A DNA stretch of 64,000 nt, taken from contig JAVCBU010000003.1 of NCBI GenBank assembly GCA_037917685.1, positions 144,264 through 208,263 on the forward strand, read 5' to 3'. How positions within the stretch are numbered: the stretch's first letter is position 1; each line of letters opens with the position of its first letter. Origin of the DNA: Thermoproteota archaeon. GTDB lineage: Archaea; Korarchaeota; Korarchaeia; Korarchaeales; JAOZGB01. The notes under the pieces were generated by a model. That model was given only the letters and a program-made list of their open reading frames with translations. It did not search any database and was not told where the DNA came from. Below, piece after piece: positions 31,198 through 50,299 of the stretch. The translations under genes were made by a program, and so were the position numbers.

Positions 31198-34100
31198 TTA
31201 CTGTGTCACCAGTATTGTTTGTGAACTGGTTTGATATCTGTTCTCCGGGTTATAATAGTCCTGTACACTTGCCGGCGGCACTGTTGCCTTGAGAGGGTAC
31301 TTGGCTTGGATTTTAAACTGGAATGTAAACGTTACACCTGGCTTTATAGCCCCTGTTAGGAAGTCTATCCTTGTGGGGCTATGTACTTCGTATCTTTCGA
31401 GGTATGGGGATGTGCTTATAGCCTCTTCGAGTGAGGTAATGTTTACTGTGAAGCCTGGTGGGAGGCCTATTGTTATGAACAGCATGTTTATGGTTGGGAG
31501 TTGGCCTGTGATGCTTGGTATTCCGAGGTATGCCACGTAAACCTTTACCGTTACAGTTCCGCCCTGGCTTATCATGGTGCTGTCAAGCTCCCTCCTAATG
31601 ATGAGAGGCTTGTCTGAGACTGTTATTCCAACAGGGTTCCCAACCGCTACAGGTCTTCCTTCTATGAGCGCCGCCGGCCCTGGGAAAATGTAGTCTCCTG
31701 GTATCAGGCCTGTAGCCTCGTATTCTATGACAGCCGTGCCTCCAGGCTCAACTGTGACATGGAAGGTTAAGACACCCTTGTCCAGCTGGCTGGGCGAGGT
31801 GTTTGATATGAAGCCTGCTGGTAGGGGGTCTCTTATCCGGAGTGTTAGAGTTCTATGCTCCCGGTTTGTCACGGTTAGCCTGACCTTTACGGGGACTCCT
31901 ACCATTGTTACGGGTATGCCTGCGATGGTTTCAACATGCTTCTCCACCGTTATCCTCCTTTCAACGCCTTCCCCAGCTATGCTTACCATGGCTGGGTTCG
32001 CCTCAGCCTTCAGGTTTCCCCCGTATCTCCCCTGGTACAGGAGCATGTACTCCACGGTGGGGTTGATGGTGTAGGTTCCCTCCTCCTCCGCCTTGAAGTA
32101 TAGGGTGACGGTTTCAGGCTCTCTTAGCTCTGTGATGTACCTTGTCCCACCCCCGAGAACCTGCAGGCCCATTGGGGGCCTAACTGTGACCCTCACCATC
32201 ACAGGGGTGAGGTCTCCTCCCGGAGGGGTGACGGTAACGTTTAACTGGAATATTTCCCCCCTTCTAGCCCTCTGGTTCAGCGGGGTTGCTAAGCATGTGA
32301 CGTTGTCTCGCAGCCACTGCCTTACGACAAGCTGGTACATGAATAGGCCTTTCCCCGTAAGCCTGATGGTTACATTGTTCATGCCTGTCCGTAGCCATGC
32401 TGCTATGGGGAATATTCTCTCAACGTCTGAGGTTTCGGGTGTTACATGTTCGCTGTACGCTAGGAGCCCGTTTACTGTTATGGTTATGGTTGCGTCTGCT
32501 TCAGCTACCCCCTTCCTCTCTGCAATCCTTACTAGGAGCTCTAGGAAGCCGCATGTGTCGCTTGTGGTTCTTATCCATCCTCCTGGGGATCTGTGCTTAA
32601 CAAGCCAGTCCACTATTTTCCTAACCATGTCATGGTGTCCTCCAGCCATTACTAGGGCTATCCCGGCGTAGGCCGTGTTTTCGGTGTCGCCCGCGAAGCT
32701 GCTGCCCTTAGGAAAGTGTATTCCATATTCGTCTTCGACGGCGAGGCTTAGAAGGCTGCTTACAGCCTTCTCCAGCGCCTGGTCGCCCTCCGGGACGTCT
32801 GCAAGCTTGAAGCATACTATCGAAAGTGCTAGGCCATACGAGTCTTCAATCCTGTCATGTAGAACTCTACTTCTAAGGTAGTTCAGTGCTTTCGCAACCT
32901 TTGGGTTTTCAGGTGGCACCCCCGACCTCAGTAAGCCCCTGAGTACGAAGCCTGTCATCACGAACTCGTCAGGCTTATAGGAGCCGTGCCCGTAGAACCC
33001 TACTGGCGGGAAGCTTCCATCCTGGTTCTGCTGCTCCATTATCCATGCCTGAAGCCTTTCTACAACCCTGTCGTCAATGTCAAACCCGGCCTTTTCGGCT
33101 TCCCCAAACGTGTTCAGGATCCAAGCAGACATTCCAAGGTTGTCCTCGTCCGTTGCATACCAGCCCATGCCCCCCGACGGGTGCTGCCTCGAAACAAGGG
33201 TTTGGAGGCCTGTCTGAGCGTAGGCTTCCAGTTTAGCCCTTAACTCCGGTGTTAGCTTTCCCTCCCTGTCAAGGTAGTTTAGGATGAGGATGTCAGGTAT
33301 GAGCCTTGAAGAAACCTGCTCGTTGCACCCTCCGGGGAATCCTATGAGGGCTTCTAGGCCGCCGATGAACATCGACTCGTAGCCTGGGGATATTCTTACA
33401 AAGGCTTCCGTGGCATTTCTAATTGCTTTTGGATGAACGAGGAAGGCTTCTGAGACATCTGATTTTAGATCCCCGTTCCTATTGATCTCCATGGGGAGGC
33501 CGTTAGGCTCGACTTTAACCTGCCTTCTAACCGCGTCCAACCTGTCAGCCGCCTCAGCATAGACTGTCAAGTAGTGTAGGCCGGGCTCTAACGCCTTAAT
33601 CCTCCAGTAGACACCCATCACAGAGTTGGCGGGAACGGTAACCCGCTTCCCCCCATCATCCAATAGTCTAAACCATTTTTCAGGCTTAATTCTCAGTGTA
33701 GCATTTAGCTCCCTTCCTGCATAGTTGTATACAGCTACCCTTAGGGATATCTCATCGTCCTGGGTAAGCCTAAGCGGGATGTCCGGTTCCACGAAGAAGT
33801 CCTTGAAAACCCTTATGGATCCCTGCCCGACGGCTATCCTCCCATCCTTTGTCGATGCTATGGCCTTCACACTCCAGGTGGTGATCGTATGTGCCATCAC
33901 CAGGTTTACCTCTGCATGCCCGGATACCGGGAGGGAGGGGCTCCAGAACAGTGTTTCAGGGAAGAACCATCTAACCTCCTGGGCTGCTGATCCAGCTTCC
34001 CGGCTGCTCGCCTCCTCATATACTTCCTGGTCCCCACCAGCTACCTCTGGAGCCACCCCCTTCCTAACAAACTCAGGACCCATCATGACCGGCCTTGGAA

Positions 34101-36285
34101 CCCCCCATCTCTCGACAAGTATGCCTCCCCGAGGTCTAAATATTATGGTGTAGAGCACCATTGCTGAGGGCAGTGCTATCGGTACTTGTAGGAGCAGGCC
34201 TATGGCGACGAGAACCTTTCCCCGGCTCTTCCTCCCGGTCAGTAAGTAGTATAGCCCTGCAAGTAGTGCAATCGTTGGTGTAGCTGCGACACCTGATATG
34301 CCGGCTAATATCATGGCTGTGTTTATCCTTTTTTGAAGGTTTTCAGCCCTTTGAATCTCCATCTGCAGGCTTGAAAACTCGTTTACGGACTCAAGTTCAT
34401 GTATCTCCCACTGTACTTCCTGATACTCCTCTGAAAGCGTGTAGAAAACCTCTTCGAAGCCCGGCCTCTGCTCTGCCAGGGCGAGGAGCGAGCTGTCCAC
34501 TATGGATATGCAAACTACGCAGTCTCTAACTTCGTTCCCGTCAGCGTCTGAAACCGCTATTCTGATGCGGCAGTCTTCACCCGGCAGGTATTCATCCTTG
34601 TCGGGCTCAACCTCTACCTTCATATCCCTCTTAGGCTGGACGTCAACCTTTAACCAGTCTGCGTAGAACTCCATGTCAGGGCCTATGGCGTAGGCCCTTA
34701 CCAGGACGTAGGGTGCGTAGGTGTCTAATGCTACAATTTTAAACTCTGCAACCCCGTCTTCAAGCCTTTCCGAACCAGTGTATAGTGTTGACTTGTCCAG
34801 TGGGCTTATTACATCCAGGTAAACCCATTTCGAGCTGACATTTAGGCTTGGCTCCTTAACAAGTACCTTTATGTCCATCTCTTCACCCACCTTGTAGGAT
34901 GGCTTGTCGCTTCTAACCCATACTATAAACCTTTCACCCATGGTTTTCGACCTGAAGCTGAAGCTGTACTCCCCATAGTACCCCTGAGCATCAAGGCATC
35001 TGGCTAGGAGCATGATCTCCCCGGTGTCCGGCGGCGCTATAGACAGTGATGCTACCCCGGCCTGGTCTGTTAGGAGGGTGTGCCTGGACAGGAGGCTTCC
35101 GTTCCCGGTGAGCACCTCAACATTTAACGTTGTATTCCCTACAGGTTTACCATCGGGATATCTGACCACGAAGTATATTGGGTAATCTTCTCCGGGCATG
35201 AACTCTTTCTTCAACGTTACAGCTCCAACTATGAATGGTGTGTCACTTATCACAAGCTTCCTGGATGCCGTCTCTACATGTCCTGAGCCGTCGATCACGC
35301 TTGCATTCACCACGATCTCAGCCTTCCCTCTTGAAATGTCCAGGCCTACCAGGTATGATGGTGCATCAAACGTGAAGCTCATAAGGCCTTCCCTGTTTGT
35401 GCTACCATAGTACTGCCACACAGTTGTCCATTCCCCGGTGTATGCCTGCACGCTTAAAGTTACGTTTCCAACTACGGGCTTACCGAAGAAGTATGAAGCG
35501 TTAACCCTTCCATAGATCTTCTCGCCTAGAAGATACCACTTCTTCTGGAATTCAAGCTCAACCTTGAACTTGGGAAGGACGTATTCCCTGATGTTCACAG
35601 TAACTTCCTGTGTATAGTCTCCTATCTCAACCCTAACCCTATATCTACCCTGTTTCAGCTCTTTTGAAAGCGGTATGTTGCAGAAGGCAACGCCATACTC
35701 GTCCGTTTTAAGGAATCGCTTAAATACCCTTACACCGTCGGGGTTTACAAGGCTAACTGTAAGGCTGGTGTTTGGGCAGGCCCTATAATCCCCGTTCGCC
35801 TCCCAGACCAGCGCTCTAAAATGTAGAGTCTGACCCGGCTGGTACCAAGGTTTATCGGTGGTTATAAGAACCCGGAAAGACCTCCGGATCCTAACTGGAA
35901 CCTCAACCCTTCCCTCCATGACACCTGAAGCCTTCACCACAAGCTTGTAGGCACCCGGTTCGATGTTTGGCACCCTAAGTGACGCGTAGAGCGAACCATC
36001 ATCGCCGGTTAAACCTTTAAATACCGGTGCAACCTTTGACCCGTTACTGTTAACAAGGTAAGCCTCCACCCTAGAGCTGACCGGGTTAGAGGCCGCCATG
36101 CTGAATGTCAAAACCTTCACAGATACGTTTCTACCTGGAACCCAGATTTCTGGGGCAACCACGCTTACGCCAGGCTTCAATACAAGCAAAAGCCTTCCAG
36201 TGTTGGACAATAGTAAAACCATGGTGAAAAACACCAATACAGCGAGAATAACCTTCCTTTCCATACAATTCTTCCACCCCTGCAA
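31198..36285 (-). CDS. alpha-2-macroglobulin/thioester-containing-protein family giant surface protein with an internal transmembrane hairpin
   Basis: 1695 aa. N-terminal anchor MERKVILAVLVFFTMVLLL. MG signatures TDKPWYQPGQTLHFRALV, REYVLPKFKVEL and SDKPSYKVGEEMDIKV. RWFFPETLFW, TTWSVKAIAS, FFVEPDIPLRLTQDDEISLRVAVYNY, thioester-type GGCNEQ, and C-terminal beta-sandwich repeats. Two hydrophobic helices at residues 659-682 and 691-716. Confidence 0.85.
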   Translation of the reverse strand: MQGWKNCMERKVILAVLVFFTMVLLLSNTGRLLLVLKPGVSVVAPEIWVPGRNVSVKVLTFSMAASNPVSSRVEAYLVNSNGSKVAPVFKGLTGDDGSLYASLRVPNIEPGAYKLVVKASGVMEGRVEVPVRIRRSFRVLITTDKPWYQPGQTLHFRALVWEANGDYRACPNTSLTVSLVNPDGVRVFKRFLKTDEYGVAFCNIPLSKELKQGRYRVRVEIGDYTQEVTVNIREYVLPKFKVELEFQKKWYLLGEKIYGRVNASYFFGKPVVGNVTLSVQAYTGEWTTVWQYYGSTNREGLMSFTFDAPSYLVGLDISRGKAEIVVNASVIDGSGHVETASRKLVISDTPFIVGAVTLKKEFMPGEDYPIYFVVRYPDGKPVGNTTLNVEVLTGNGSLLSRHTLLTDQAGVASLSIAPPDTGEIMLLARCLDAQGYYGEYSFSFRSKTMGERFIVWVRSDKPSYKVGEEMDIKVLVKEPSLNVSSKWVYLDVISPLDKSTLYTGSERLEDGVAEFKIVALDTYAPYVLVRAYAIGPDMEFYADWLKVDVQPKRDMKVEVEPDKDEYLPGEDCRIRIAVSDADGNEVRDCVVCISIVDSSLLALAEQRPGFEEVFYTLSEEYQEVQWEIHELESVNEFSSLQMEIQRAENLQKRINTAMILAGISGVAATPTIALLAGLYYLLTGRKSRGKVLVAIGLLLQVPIALPSAMVLYTIIFRPRGGILVERWGVPRPVMMGPEFVRKGVAPEVAGGDQEVYEEASSREAGSAAQEVRWFFPETLFWSPSLPVSGHAEVNLVMAHTITTWSVKAIASTKDGRIAVGQGSIRVFKDFFVEPDIPLRLTQDDEISLRVAVYNYAGRELNATLRIKPEKWFRLLDDGGKRVTVPANSVMGVYWRIKALEPGLHYLTVYAEAADRLDAVRRQVKVEPNGLPMEINRNGDLKSDVSEAFLVHPKAIRNATEAFVRISPGYESMFIGGLEALIGFPGGCNEQVSSRLIPDILILNYLDREGKLTPELRAKLEAYAQTGLQTLVSRQHPSGGMGWYATDEDNLGMSAWILNTFGEAEKAGFDIDDRVVERLQAWIMEQQNQDGSFPPVGFYGHGSYKPDEFVMTGFVLRGLLRSGVPPENPKVAKALNYLRSRVLHDRIEDSYGLALSIVCFKLADVPEGDQALEKAVSSLLSLAVEDEYGIHFPKGSSFAGDTENTAYAGIALVMAGGHHDMVRKIVDWLVKHRSPGGWIRTTSDTCGFLELLVRIAERKGVAEADATITITVNGLLAYSEHVTPETSDVERIFPIAAWLRTGMNNVTIRLTGKGLFMYQLVVRQWLRDNVTCLATPLNQRARRGEIFQLNVTVTPPGGDLTPVMVRVTVRPPMGLQVLGGGTRYITELREPETVTLYFKAEEEGTYTINPTVEYMLLYQGRYGGNLKAEANPAMVSIAGEGVERRITVEKHVETIAGIPVTMVGVPVKVRLTVTNREHRTLTLRIRDPLPAGFISNTSPSQLDKGVLTFHVTVEPGGTAVIEYEATGLIPGDYIFPGPAALIEGRPVAVGNPVGITVSDKPLIIRRELDSTMISQGGTVTVKVYVAYLGIPSITGQLPTINMLFITIGLPPGFTVNITSLEEAISTSPYLERYEVHSPTRIDFLTGAIKPGVTFTFQFKIQAKYPLKATVPPASVQDYYNPENRYQTSSQTILVTQ

Positions 36286-36397
36286 ATTGGATTAAAAGTT
36301 ATACTATAACTTCAACAAACGTTAAACCATAACCCCTAAGCCTAAGCTCCCCACAAGAACTACATATTATCCATAGTCTAGCCGTGGGGAAGCAGGA

Positions 36398-36462
36398 AAT
36401 GTAAAGAATGAGGTTAAATGAATGAGGTTAAATGATGATAAATGTAAAGAATGAGGTTAAAT
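36398..36462. repeat. short AT-rich tandem/interspersed repeat
   Basis: AAATGTAAAGAATGAGGTTAAATG occurs at 36398-36420 and 36440-36462. An extra AATGAGGTTAAATG copy is at 36421-36434. Confidence 0.9.
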
Positions 36463-37017
36463 GGTTGGTTCAGCAGGGTACATATACTGTTTTTCATTGC
36501 CATCCCATTTCTCAGATATTGAGTACTCTGGAAATCTCCTAGTGTTAAACAGGCACTGGCAAAGCGGATGTGGGGCAAATATATCTCCATAGTATGCCAG
36601 GCTAGCTATTCTGCATCGGCCTGCGCATAAATCCTTCACGTTGCATATCTCACATACACCCTTTAAACGGCTCTCTATGTTCCTGTGGAGTTCACTCTAA
36701 GTTCGTTAAGGTTCTTCCTATACATGACCGTCTCCCCTTATGATTTCATGCGAAGCCTTGGTAGCTTGATGTTTTTATAGAAACGTTGTATAAACGCATC
36801 ACCAAATTATAACTGCATCCACTATCACATATTAACCCATATCGCAACCTACGCCGCAAATTCCAGTTTCTTTTATTAGTTCTTTAACTCCTTTCTTTTA
36901 TCCCTCAACGCTTTCCTCACCCCATGGAGCACCTTGCTCACAACCTGGTATACGCTTCAATCCGGATGAGCATCCAATACTACAGGTTGGTTGCATCACT
37001 ACTATATTCTTAAACAT
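36457..37017 (-). pseudogene. radical-SAM/SPASM-domain gene relic (heavily decayed and shortened)
   Basis: Open frame 36457-36696 encodes SELHRNIESRLKGVCEICNVKDLCAGRCRIASLAYYGDIFAPHPLC.. with a perfect CX2CX5CX3C at 36613-36654. Upstream fragments in other frames are IIRGDGHV*, YRKNLNEL.. and possibly MFKNIVVMQPTCSIGCSSG (a degenerate CX3CX2C). The upstream extent is uncertain. Confidence 0.55.
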
Positions 37018-45546: not shown

Positions 45547-46722
45547 GTGGAATTGAAAGCTAAAAGGTTTCTGGCTTTAACCCTTTATCTTATATTCACA
45601 CACGCATACATATTATCTTCAGCATATGATATTGAAACCATTGCCTATACTAGTACTCCACCATTTGTTGTTCATGTTTGGGTTAATAAGGGGTGCGGAG
45701 CCGAGTATACAGTTGGCGAGTCTATTACAGTATTCTTCTCCTCCAATAGGAATGCAACTGTCGAGCTTATAGCTTTCACTAGTAGTGGAGCGAGCTATCT
45801 ATTCGTCGGAAACATTATAGAGAACGAAATATATACATGGATGGGAAATGTTGGAACAACCCCCGGAGAAGTACTATACGTTCTCAGGGGTTGGAATAAC
45901 ACAGACTACTGTGAGGACTCATGCCTCATATACGTAGTTGAAATATCCGGCACTCTAACACTAATTGTCCGGGAGAAACAGTCAAACATCTCCTTAAATG
46001 GGGTAAAAGTATACCTCAACGGCAGCCTCCAGGGAGAAACAGGTGAAGACGGTACATTCACAATAGCAGGCCTCGAAACAGGCGTATACAACCTTACACT
46101 TAAGAAAACAGGATACTACACATGGAAGGGTATAGTACAGATACATCCCGGGCAAACAACAGAAGTCTCAGCATACATGGAGAAAATGCCCGAAGTCGGC
46201 GACCTCAAAATCCTCGTGGTGGAAGAAAACACCTTACAAAGCATACCCAACGCTCAGATATACATCGACGACCAAATGAAAGGAACAACCGGAGCATACG
46301 GCTCCATAACTATTAATAACCTCCAGGCAGGACCCCATACAATAACAGTAATAGCAGAAGGATACCAAACATACGAATCTACAATAATGGTTAAGAAATG
46401 GAAGCTCAACACATTCATGGCAAAGCTGAAACCAATCACTCAGCCTCCTACGACTCCTCCTCCTACAACCCAGCCTCCTACGACTCCTCCTCCTACAACC
46501 CAGCCTCCTACGACTCCTCCTCCTACAACCCAGCCTCCTACGACTCCTCCTCCTACAACCCAGCCTCCTACGACTCCTCCTCCTACAACCCAGCCTCCTA
46601 CGACTCCTCCTCCTACAACCCAGCCTCCCGCCAGGTCGATGTACTTAAACACGGTTATAATACTTGCGGCTCTGGTTATAGTGTTATCTATAGCACTTGC
46701 GGTATTAGCGCTGAAGAGGTAA
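45547..46722 (+). CDS. surface protein: two carboxypeptidase-regulatory-like (PEGA-like) domains, a Thr/Pro stalk and a C-terminal TM anchor
   Basis: 391 aa. Signal, then GVKVYLNGSLQGETGEDGTFTIAGLETGVYNLTLKKTGY and a second similar unit, (QPPTTPPPTT)x6, and the anchor VIILAALVIVLSIALAVLAL. Confidence 0.6.
   Translation: MELKAKRFLALTLYLIFTHAYILSSAYDIETIAYTSTPPFVVHVWVNKGCGAEYTVGESITVFFSSNRNATVELIAFTSSGASYLFVGNIIENEIYTWMGNVGTTPGEVLYVLRGWNNTDYCEDSCLIYVVEISGTLTLIVREKQSNISLNGVKVYLNGSLQGETGEDGTFTIAGLETGVYNLTLKKTGYYTWKGIVQIHPGQTTEVSAYMEKMPEVGDLKILVVEENTLQSIPNAQIYIDDQMKGTTGAYGSITINNLQAGPHTITVIAEGYQTYESTIMVKKWKLNTFMAKLKPITQPPTTPPPTTQPPTTPPPTTQPPTTPPPTTQPPTTPPPTTQPPTTPPPTTQPPTTPPPTTQPPARSMYLNTVIILAALVIVLSIALAVLALKR
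46441..46628 (+). repeat. perfect 30-bp tandem repeat, 6 full copies plus 8 nt, in frame
   Basis: The unit CAGCCTCCTACGACTCCTCCTCCTACAACC is repeated without a single mismatch over 46441-46620. Confidence 0.95.
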
Positions 46723-48877: not shown

Positions 48878-50299
48878 TTATGAGCTGTATATAAGTTTAC
48901 ATTCATCCATTGTGACAGTTTTATCCCCGTTTTTATCGGTCCACATGACTACAATGGTTGTCGACTGGCCTATTCTTCCACCTATCAGGTAGAGAGCTGC
49001 TGCTTGAGTCCCGTACCTGGTGCATCCCTCTACGAAAACTATCCATCTGGCATTCTCAGCATCCTTGTAAAGCCTTATTACTCCATAGTCCCTTTTAGCC
49101 CAGTCTCCCTTATTATAGGTCCAAGACATGTCTTCTACCTTCAGGGTAATGCCTTCCTTTGAGAACTCGAATGATATTCCAGCGTCACTATTATACGTCT
49201 CTGACACCTTGCATGAGAGAGGCCCGCCCACAACAACGAGGTTTCTACCAGTATCTTCACTAACAACTTCTCCCTTTATCTCCAGCGCTACCTTGATCTT
49301 CGTGGCTGATGCTCTGTCATATGTCCCACATGTTATATCTGAGTCCTGAGCTGCCTTCGTCTTCCAGCCTTCAAGGTTTATGTCTATCATTCCTTCAGCC
49401 TCTGCCAGCATGCACGCGAGAGCCAGGGTGAGCCTTGTATTGTCAAATAAGATTTCGAAGTCTACATTGTTTTTAATCGTGTCTCTATCGCTGTGGATGT
49501 ACGTGTTTGAGAAGGCATTCGAGTCCATTATGCATATTGCTGGTACTCCAATCTTCAGGAATGACGCGTGGTCTGAAAACTCGTATCTACCGTACATTAT
49601 CTCAGCGTCTACACCTATAGTCTCGGCAACTGTTATGGCTGTTTCTGCAAGGCTCATTTCACCCTCGGACGGGTTTCTCGACGGGGATGTTCCAACCCAG
49701 ATACCGGTGGGCCTGTCCTTGGCAACCATGTCTAGCTGTACATTAAACTTGATGTTTTCCCCCTTATGCTCGGATACGTAGGCTCTTGAGCCGAATAGTC
49801 CCAGCTCCTCACCCGAGAAGAATACTATTCTCAGTGTATGTTTTAGTTTCAGGTATGAGATGATTCTCGCAACTTCCAATAACGCTACAACCCCACTTCC
49901 ATCATCATCTGCCCCGGGAGCCCTGTCAGAGGTATCCTCCCAGTTGACACTGTCAAAGTGGGCGCTGAAGACTATTATTTCGTCATCTCCCGGGAATTCT
50001 CCCACTACGTTAGGCACCACTACCGATGTGTCTCCCCATGAAAGCCTATAGTATTCCAGGTGGACCTCCGCCCCGGCTTCCTCCAGCTTTTCAGCTAGGA
50101 AGTTAGCGCTCTCATTGATATACGGGGTTATCGTGAACCGAGTATAGAACGAAGTCAACGTTTGAAGGTCGTCTTCAAGTCTCTCGATAGATACTTGATC
50201 GAGGATTTCAAGGTAGTTGAAAACCGTGCCTGCTGATAGGCCCATAAAGACTTGGGACAGGACAATAAGAAGCAGTATGGTGGATAAGTGGATCCTCAT
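48878..50299 (-). CDS. secreted M28-family aminopeptidase with a C-terminal CWB2-like module
   Basis: 473 aa. PGADDDGSGVVALLEVAR, FFSGEELGLFGS. The C-terminus reads LVVVGGPLS...VFVEGCTRYGTQAAALYL...VVMWTDKNGDKTV. Confidence 0.8.
   Translation of the reverse strand: MRIHLSTILLLIVLSQVFMGLSAGTVFNYLEILDQVSIERLEDDLQTLTSFYTRFTITPYINESANFLAEKLEEAGAEVHLEYYRLSWGDTSVVVPNVVGEFPGDDEIIVFSAHFDSVNWEDTSDRAPGADDDGSGVVALLEVARIISYLKLKHTLRIVFFSGEELGLFGSRAYVSEHKGENIKFNVQLDMVAKDRPTGIWVGTSPSRNPSEGEMSLAETAITVAETIGVDAEIMYGRYEFSDHASFLKIGVPAICIMDSNAFSNTYIHSDRDTIKNNVDFEILFDNTRLTLALACMLAEAEGMIDINLEGWKTKAAQDSDITCGTYDRASATKIKVALEIKGEVVSEDTGRNLVVVGGPLSCKVSETYNSDAGISFEFSKEGITLKVEDMSWTYNKGDWAKRDYGVIRLYKDAENARWIVFVEGCTRYGTQAAALYLIGGRIGQSTTIVVMWTDKNGDKTVTMDECKLIYSS

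Follow-up and report, generated by a model that had tools for sequence, protein, structure and literature searches.

Innate immunity in animals depends centrally on alpha-2-macroglobulin (A2M), C3 and other thioester proteins of their kind. To our knowledge, almost all that is known of prokaryotic A2Ms concerns two types, the lipoprotein ECAM/SaA2M and MagD. Bacterial ECAM (YfhM) and the Salmonella A2M (SaA2M) are reported to be monomeric thioester A2Ms on the outer face of the cytoplasmic membrane, for which the trapping of proteases that reach the envelope has been proposed (PMC4498604). A 2026 review describes bacterial A2Ms as probable metazoan acquisitions and leaves archaea unmentioned (PMC13069473). 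The archaeal A2M/TEP homologues in the catalogue of Makarova and colleagues come mostly from Halobacteria and Methanomicrobia; they have Ig-like domains, a TED with an intact CxEQ motif and usually a signal peptide, in varied and often reduced domain organisations, and were put forward as possible surface immunity components (PMC8416519); archaeal A2M homologues are also mentioned in passing in other literature. Here we describe a gene on the minus strand of a 64,000-nt stretch of Thermoproteota archaeon DNA (contig JAVCBU010000003.1, positions 144,264 to 208,263; hereafter the window), which encodes a complete A2M-family protein with a hairpin of two predicted transmembrane helices at the site where the bait region is inserted. 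The gene had been singled out in an earlier note made from the sequence alone.

A full-length A2M-family protein in an archaeon

As the earlier note had it, 31198-36285 on the minus strand is one uninterrupted open reading frame (ORF) of 1695 codons from a TTG, and it contains all of the peptide motifs quoted there, in the order given. Over 1688 amino acids (aa) its product shares 100% identity with the database protein P0001, which begins at an ATG at 36264, eight codons in; a Shine-Dalgarno-like GGGGTGG precedes this ATG by about 9 nt, and an A/T-rich box lies beyond it. The coding sequence (CDS) is likely to start at this ATG (Table 1), and residue numbers below count from its Met.

Seven Pfam domains of the A2M family, every one over its gathering threshold, lie along the protein in the canonical order (Table 1), and the expected MG, A2M_BRD, A2M, TED and A2M_recep assignments are thus all significant. 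Consistent with this, sequence matches in the PDB include human A2M, A2ML1 and CD109 at E ~1e-46, TEP1 at 1e-36 and C3/C4 at 1e-29, and C, E and Q of the CxEQ thioester-type motif are invariant in a 42-sequence alignment. AlphaFold2 models were obtained for two overlapping segments, residues 1-1000 (mean predicted local distance difference test score (pLDDT) 75) and residues 760-1688 (mean pLDDT 80), and compared with known structures using Foldseek. The first matched C4b, CD109, A2ML1, C5, C3 and A2M at E 3e-51 to 1e-40, with TM-scores up to 0.61. The second gave TM-scores of 0.53-0.57 to native C3, A2ML1 and CD109 (E 5e-33 to the native C3 alpha chain) but only 0.26 to C3b, and therefore resembles the native, thioester-protected state. 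NCBIfam returned only sub-threshold terpene-cyclase-like matches, which reflect the alpha/alpha-toroid of the TED. Taken together, domain order, PDB matches and fold bear out the A2M/thioester-family identity first read from the motifs: on every count that can be tested in sequence or structure, the protein is a full-length member of the A2M/TEP superfamily, and its family, domain order and fold are established.

The C-terminal model contains an extra pair of beta-sandwiches at about residues 1323-1519, between the second CUB half and MG8. In the alignment, the region of these domains spans about 200 columns between conserved columns 2317 and 2533, and the bacterial relatives there appear to be without them.

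The named relatives of a nucleotide-sugar dehydrogenase encoded in the window are all archaeal, at 43-47% identity (Thermococcus, Pyrococcus, Bathyarchaeota, Thermoproteales, Fervidicoccaceae and Asgard). Moreover, the only species-representative genomes with an A2M relative are two metagenome-assembled genomes (MAGs) labelled 'Thermoproteota archaeon', Kor3 and the Guaymas isolate B14_G2. Both observations support an archaeal genome, as had been supposed from the start, and we treat the archaeal origin of the gene as established; no tRNA and no Rfam family was found in the window.

A hydrophobic hairpin upstream of a bait-like linker

The segment 34138-34314 encodes MILAGISGVAATPTIALLAGLYYLL-TGRKSRGK-VLVAIGLLLQVPIALPSAMVLYTIIF, two hydrophobic stretches of 25 and 26 residues joined by a short loop. 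Their 19-residue Kyte-Doolittle (KD) means are 1.86 (residues 651-675) and 2.11 (684-709), above the classical threshold of 1.6, which elsewhere in the 1688 aa is exceeded only at the N terminus (2.29) and, marginally, in an MG6 strand (1.68). By a crude Hessa-type sum, the two helices rank second and third in the protein. AlphaFold2 models the region as an antiparallel hairpin of helices 632-675 and 679-709, whose flanks at 601-632 (pLDDT below 50) and 708-760 are modelled with low confidence. The hairpin region matches no Pfam family, and neither do the inserts of bacterial relatives with six transmembrane segments. The coordinates of the hairpin, the linker that follows it and the CNEQ motif were all confirmed by re-translation. 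Hydropathy, the model and the loops of homologues therefore agree with the earlier note on two transmembrane-like helices and a basic connecting loop between MG6 and the FPET motif. The 'acidic helix' described there (about residues 597-632) is present as a segment, but it is really a family-wide conserved element that matches bacterial EKVYFxLEKELxxPRYEIHG, and AlphaFold2 has low confidence in it.

The hairpin is kept in six Thermoproteota sequences. In P0002 (79% identity), P0003 (78%), P0004 (71%), P0005 (50%) and the Guaymas fragment L003 (48%), which come from independent assemblies, it lies within one ORF. Across five homologues, helix identity falls to 26-28% (to P0005, the most distant), mean hydropathy is kept at 1.6-2.3 and the loop stays basic; the flanking domains are 59-71% identical, and the Gly and Pro positions in both helices are invariant within the clade. 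More widely, all 17 parsed hairpin relatives have a short connecting loop with a net basic charge, and 3 of the 17 loops contain acidic residues. The hydrophobic pair is no chance feature; the presence, position and conservation of the hairpin, and the charge of its loop, are established.

A single ORF with a hydrophobic junction could also come about if two genes had been fused, the reading frame had shifted or the assembly were wrong. No support for such an artefact was found: the same uninterrupted ORF recurs in independent NCBI, Logan and ENA assemblies at 100%, 79%, 78% and 50% identity, as well as in the L003 fragment, MG6 is split as in all A2Ms, and we found no homologue divided into two genes at the hairpin. 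Even P0004, which is truncated at its N terminus, holds the hairpin inside one ORF. We therefore reject an artefact as extremely improbable. P0004 (1343 aa; L005 10001-14032) occurs in the same archaeal MAG (GCA_027492015.1) as its full-length paralogue P0003 (L004 10001-15073); it starts at MG4, with no remnant of MG1-3 upstream and no N-terminal signal, and may be a pseudogene or a truncated variant.

The earlier note had placed the hairpin where the bait should be. The hairpin does sit between MG6 and FPET, and the insert divides MG6 exactly as in all A2Ms, but the bait has not been replaced. In a HMMER alignment, query residues 761-856 (AQEVRWFFPETLFW...) pair with human A2M 728-825 (TETVRKYFPETWIW...), and human residue 728 lies directly past the bait region. 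The 55-residue linker at 33973-34137, recovered by re-translation as it had been described, thus aligns with the human bait; no other part of the protein is so poorly conserved (23% identity to P0005, and indels as well). Because the linker occupies the human bait position, is disordered and is the least conserved segment, a bait has most likely been kept, and sequence and model together indicate that the hairpin was most likely inserted at the N-terminal end of the MG6 bait loop, upstream of the retained bait-like linker. The disorder and variability of the linker are themselves established.

Predicted topology and a proposed membrane-integrated trap

The hydrophobic part of the N terminus, between MERK and SNTG, comprises 15 residues. 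N-x-S/T sequons number 16, about 2.5-fold more than the shuffle expectation of 6.5 +/- 2.3; they fall at residues 46-475 and 854-1608, with none at 476-853, and the enrichment is seen in archaeal relatives and is absent from bacterial ones. Sequons on both sides of the hairpin fit surface exposure and archaeal N-glycosylation, and we infer that both halves of the protein may be exposed and glycosylated. Taken with the N-terminal signal or anchor, an even helix count and the K/R-rich loop, basic throughout the 17 relatives, the flanking sequons support the earlier prediction that both halves lie outside the cell, with the hairpin inserted in the membrane in a predicted N-out/C-out arrangement.

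By analogy with characterised A2Ms, we favour with moderate confidence a surface-exposed, membrane-integrated thioester protease trap, with both halves outside and tethered by the hairpin. In this model, the N-terminal signal or anchor would start export and MG1 to MG6a (about 600 aa) would be translocated. Helix 651-675 would then act as a stop-transfer, leaving TGRKSRGK in the cytoplasm, and helix 684-709 would restart translocation of the remaining ~980 aa (linker, MG6b-MG7, CUB, TED, extra beta-sandwiches and MG8). The two external halves would come together as a single A2M body on the outside of the membrane, tethered via the hairpin. A protease arriving at the surface would cut the exposed, disordered linker 710-764, which would free a conformational latch and expose the CNEQ thioester; this would link covalently to the protease or to another nearby nucleophile, and the complex would be retained on the cell as the hairpin keeps the N-terminal chain in the membrane. 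Thioester formation, bait cleavage, trapping and the biological target are all proposed by the same analogy. A soluble inhibitor would be lost from an archaeon that has no outer membrane, which makes anchoring plausible.

Several points weigh against this model. The outer flanks of the hairpin are also basic, with three K/R before the first helix and four after the second in the window protein. The Hessa-type sums of ~+2.3 and +3.8 kcal/mol indicate only moderate hydrophobicity, Pro and Gly occur in both helices, and AlphaFold2 confidence in the hairpin is modest (pLDDT 50-72). The N-terminal signal, if uncleaved, would suffice for anchoring, and the selective value of the hairpin would then be unaccounted for. 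Moreover, no protease, regulator or conserved partner gene at the locus points to a target, and the neighbours of a Thermoplasmata-type relative are unrelated. The moderate hydrophobicity, the Pro and Gly residues and the modest pLDDT of the hairpin, as well as the occurrence of soluble bait-site modules (for example, T2SSG-like) in other relatives, would suit helices that do not span the membrane but form a soluble module, placed like the anaphylatoxin of C3/C4/C5, that packs on the body or mediates oligomerisation in a secreted or N-terminally anchored protein. We find such a module distinctly improbable, as both segments pass a KD value of 1.6 that nearly nothing else in the protein passes, extend over 25-26 residues and flank a loop that is basic in 17 of 17 relatives; hydrophobicity rather than sequence is conserved, and relatives carry unmistakable bundles of 4-8 transmembrane segments at the same place.

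A protein of the same topology might instead be a complement- or TEP-like covalent tagger or adhesin, its thioester coupling it to viruses, other cells or surfaces and the hairpin serving only to retain it. C3/C4, TEP1 and CD109 stand beside A2M among the best matches in sequence and fold, two extra beta-sandwich domains precede MG8, and archaeal A2M/TEP homologues have been proposed as immunity or conflict components (PMC8416519). However, the protein has neither an anaphylatoxin domain nor a convertase-type processing site, the gene neighbourhood contains no conflict-system genes, and the disordered, hypervariable bait-like linker, a hallmark of protease-triggered members, is kept. We consider a tagger or adhesin unlikely.

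If the membrane-stitched trap works, it would offer a simple system in which bait cleavage leads to conformational change under a geometric constraint, a starting point for work on surface defence in archaea, whose cells lack an outer membrane that could hold a soluble inhibitor, and a thermostable, self-anchoring scaffold for protease capture.

Distribution of membrane inserts and the A2M locus

An exhaustive HMMER search, with residues 540-860 as the query, gave 4481 family members at E < 1e-3. Hydrophobic segments lie between the PRYEIHG-type motif and FPET in 52 of the 150 best representatives, a fraction that is perhaps somewhat inflated because the query contains the hairpin. Even numbers dominate in the same 150 (six segments in 14 representatives, two in 11, four in 6 and eight in 1), which agrees with both halves of the protein lying outside. 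The architecture is thus not unique to this gene, and some of the proteins have been deposited under generic names. Labelled examples are an 'alpha-2-macroglobulin family protein [Thermoplasmata archaeon]' with two transmembrane segments and CGEQ, Thermoflexales/Anaerolineae proteins with a hairpin, and proteins of Actinomycetota and Omnitrophota with four and six segments, respectively. P0406 belongs to the two-segment CGEQ group, in which P0344 is labelled Thermoplasmata, and is archaeal because its contig carries the adjoining genes for Nop10, eIF2-alpha and ribosomal proteins S27e and L44e. A scan of a genome collection with the single protein found no relative there, a scan with the alignment found two archaeal MAG contigs only, both short, and a homologue search with a mixed alignment returned mostly the same bacterial proteins and some additional hairpin-bearing members.

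In a rough neighbour-joining tree of the conserved core, the hairpin types fall together (the Thermoproteota CNEQ clade, P0245 with CVEQ, the Thermoplasmata CGEQ clade and Chloroflexota-like proteins), and the proteins with 4-8 transmembrane segments form a separate contiguous block. This grouping suggests that membrane inserts arose at least twice and were long retained. At least two archaeal lineages, the Thermoproteota MAGs and the Thermoplasmata-type clade, have complete A2Ms whose sequences are nearer to those of eukaryotic members than to that of ECAM. The architecture is conserved, widespread and probably unexpected to a specialist; its significance depends on the putative function. The bacterial clade with 4-8 segments includes P0018, P0058, P0060, P0061, P0079, P0084, P0085, P0120, P0246, P0325, P0357 and others, with KD values up to 3.3.

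Other relatives (P0105, P0112, P0006, P0053, P0415-P0419 and P0422) carry a soluble insert of ~200 aa at the bait site, with the motif SAGPDGxFDTxDD. This insert of bacterial relatives matches Pfam T2SSG (pseudopilin GspG) at E 1.7e-5, and one of these relatives bears the database name 'type II secretion system protein GspG'. Given that different modules occupy the same insertion site in bacteria, the bait site looks like an evolutionary hotspot for accessory modules such as transmembrane bundles and pseudopilin-like domains. P0351, labelled Thermoflexales/Anaerolineae, and P0329, P0372, P0404 and P0405, which group with it, have a lipobox-like motif (for example, VILSAC, FIVSC or VLMGC) directly past the second hairpin helix, which raises the possibility of internal processing by signal peptidase II and lipidation in this group; no lipobox-like motif was found at that position in the window protein. 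In P0061 (MBF0595555.1, Omnitrophota; named by NCBI, with a precomputed PF13490 match), an N-terminal zf-HC2 anti-sigma-factor-type domain is fused to the A2M body, and the N termini of P0314 and P0328 look zf-HC2-like from a reading of the sequence only. These fusions hint that some A2Ms may be extracytoplasmic sensors.

Such relatives bear on whether the membrane module could be a transducer, the cutting of the bait or rearrangement of the body moving the hairpin, possibly as an oligomeric bundle, to signal or act across the membrane. Bundles of 4-8 segments at the bait site exceed the needs of anchoring, some relatives have the zf-HC2-type domain, and the invariance of Gly and Pro positions in the two helices points to specific packing. 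By contrast, the cytoplasmic mass of the window protein would be nearly nil (MERK and the eight-residue loop), no regulator gene is adjacent and the helix sequences diverge freely within the clade, and we judge a transducer quite improbable. It also seems rather unlikely to us that the bait-position module, be it the archaeal/Chloroflexota-like hairpin or the bundle of 4-8 transmembrane segments in another bacterial clade, is the working part of a hitherto unrecognised class of membrane-integrated A2M sentinels, in which the helices mechanically couple a bait cut or a snap of the body to gating, sealing or, as in the anti-sigma-fused relatives perhaps, signalling; if true, the protein would be an archaeal surface innate-immunity device with a mode of action unlike that of all characterised A2Ms.

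At the locus, the A2M gene has a G+C fraction of 0.515 (0.57 at third codon positions) against a window mean of 0.455. Recent transfer was considered from this raised value and dropped, because neighbouring genes reach 0.48-0.52. A promoter and terminator scan of bacterial type around the gene gave counts equal to the shuffle expectation. The unusually long, 862-bp intergenic region 5' of the A2M gene, common to it and a divergent Metallophos gene, contains a 24-nt direct repeat, AAATGTAAAGAATGAGGTTAAATG, in three copies at 36397-36463 (two exact, one 79%). The neighbouring genes encode the Metallophos phosphoesterase, a metallo-beta-lactamase-fold protein, an alpha/beta-hydrolase and an unannotated 575-aa ORF, and none of them gave a transglycosylase or transpeptidase match. 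The Metallophos/lactamase-fold pair was rejected as a functional partner, since it is common only to the 78%-identical relative and is missing beside both P0004 and the Thermoplasmata-type gene; synteny with the 78%-identical relative reflects close relatedness only. Two further genes in the window encode predicted surface proteins, a CarboxypepD_reg/PEGA-repeat protein (45547-46722, plus strand) and an M28 peptidase with a weak match to an S-layer C-terminal domain (48878-50299, minus strand).

Table 1. Features of the A2M-family protein and ORFs without a Pfam match (E <= 1e-5) in the window
Feature	Residues or length	Window coordinates	Strand	Basis or remark
A2M-family CDS (likely)	1688 aa	31198..36264	-	ATG at 36264, stop at 31198-31200; mechanical ORF extends to TTG 36285; basis P0001 identity
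N-terminal signal peptide or signal anchor (predicted), MERK + VILAVLVFFTMVLLL + SNTG	1-23	36196..36264	-	KD 2.29, top window of the protein; model helix 2-20; kept in P0002, P0003, P0005
MG1-MG4 beta-sandwiches	about 31-439	34948..36174	-	Pfam MG2 (E 2e-29), MG3 (E 2e-11), MG4 (E 7e-7); pLDDT 80-94; Foldseek to C4b, CD109, A2ML1
MG5 and first part of MG6	450-596	34477..34917	-	Pfam A2M_BRD (450-596, E 3e-15); AlphaFold2 model
Conserved PGFEEVFY..EYQEVQWEIHELE, then amphipathic stalk helix continuous with transmembrane helix 1	597-650	34315..34476	-	68-80% identity within clade; matches bacterial EKVYF..PRYEIHG
Predicted transmembrane helix 1 (outside to inside)	651-675	34240..34314	-	hydropathy, AlphaFold2 helix, conservation; G655, P663, G670, Y672 invariant
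Basic loop TGRKSRGK, predicted cytoplasmic	676-683	34216..34239	-	4 K/R, no D/E
Predicted transmembrane helix 2 (inside to outside)	684-709	34138..34215	-	hydropathy, AlphaFold2 helix, conservation
Linker, candidate bait	710-764 (55 aa)	33973..34137	-	rich in G, V, E, R, A, P; pLDDT 25-35; least conserved
RWFFPETLFW (completes MG6), then MG7	765-858	33691..33972	-	Pfam A2M (771-858, E 2e-17); aligned to human A2M 728-825; 71-90% identity within clade
First CUB half and TED	861-1251	32512..33684	-	Pfam TED_complement (968-1244, E 1.4e-28); helical, pLDDT ~90; matches native C3, A2ML1, CD109
CNEQ thioester-type CxEQ motif within GFPGGCNEQVSS	980-983	33316..33327	-	re-translation
Second CUB half and two extra beta-sandwich domains	1257-1519	31708..32496	-	model strands; weak BatD and DUF4139 Pfam matches
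MG8 / receptor-binding-type domain	1554-1688	31201..31605	-	Pfam A2M_recep (1592-1678, E 6.4e-8; 33.6 bits against a cut-off of 21.7); modelled beta-sandwich 1554-1687
ORF without Pfam match	575 aa	28865-30592	+	convergent with the A2M gene; not found beside the 78%-identical relative
ORF without Pfam match	424 aa	258-1532	+	
ORF without Pfam match	407 aa	50645-51868	-	
ORF without Pfam match	777 aa	58816-61149	+	

Comparison with described A2M-family proteins

ECAM has an N-terminal lipobox anchor and is genetically linked to PBP1c. The window protein is, like ECAM and SaA2M (PDB 4RTD, 5A42, 4ZIQ, 4U48), a prokaryotic A2M with a thioester-type motif, but its N terminus, MERKVILAVLVFFTMVLLLSNTGR, has no Cys (the first is residue 163), and there is no pbpC linkage at the locus. 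The two are also distant in sequence: matches at E 3.6e-7 (4RTD) and 7e-6 (4U48) cover one MG domain only, compared with ~1e-46 for human A2M, A2ML1 and CD109.

Among archaeal proteins, A2M homologues with CxEQ were already catalogued in PMC8416519. Neither this clade nor the membrane insert appears there, as the text mentions no internal transmembrane helices and no members from Thermoproteota or Thermoplasmata, whereas the window protein is a complete eukaryote-like A2M. In full-text literature searches we found no description of transmembrane helices at an A2M bait region, in agreement with the earlier note, nor of complete eukaryote-like A2Ms in Thermoproteota or Thermoplasmata. Deposited members of the same prokaryotic subfamily do carry membrane inserts: MEM3525377.1 (Thermoplasmata), MCS7055680.1 (Thermoflexales), MGV3722911.1 (Actinomycetota) and MBF0595555.1 (Omnitrophota) have 2-8 hydrophobic segments between the PRYEIHG-type motif and FPET, the same site as the hairpin in the window protein. 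They have generic names and no paper on them was found; their motifs are CGEQ, CFEQ, CLEQ and CMEQ, and some have anti-sigma-like or lipobox-like features.

CD109 has a C-terminal glycosylphosphatidylinositol (GPI) lipid anchor, so that, contrary to the earlier note, metazoan A2Ms are not all soluble. This membrane-tethered monomeric member with a bait and a thioester (PDB 8S3O, 9FX2/3) ranks with the best matches in fold (Foldseek E 1.4e-50, TM-score 0.60) and, unlike the window protein, has no protein helices mid-chain. Membrane tethering is therefore known in the family, through the ECAM lipobox and the CD109 GPI anchor; for helices at the bait insertion we found no paper, and they would be an undescribed form of anchoring.

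Complement C3, C4 and C5 carry a helical anaphylatoxin module at the bait-equivalent site. They have the same fold as the window protein, but the anaphylatoxin is a soluble, disulfide-rich bundle freed by convertase, whereas the helices here are hydrophobic and predicted to span the membrane. Up to E 0.1, Pfam gave no ANATO or NTR match in the window protein, whose chain ends at MG8 with no C345C.

Human A2M and A2ML1 (PDB 6TAV, 7O7L-R, 7Q1Y; Foldseek E ~1e-47 to 1e-40) have in common with the window protein the order MG1-MG7, CUB, TED and MG8, the CxEQ motif and an FPETW-type strand with which MG6 continues past a disordered bait. The window protein differs from human A2M in its two additional beta-sandwiches before MG8, in CNEQ instead of CGEQ and in its archaeal host. 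Moreover, human A2M and A2ML1 are soluble and secreted, and A2M is tetrameric, whereas the window protein has a predicted transmembrane hairpin before the candidate bait, together with an N-terminal anchor or signal.

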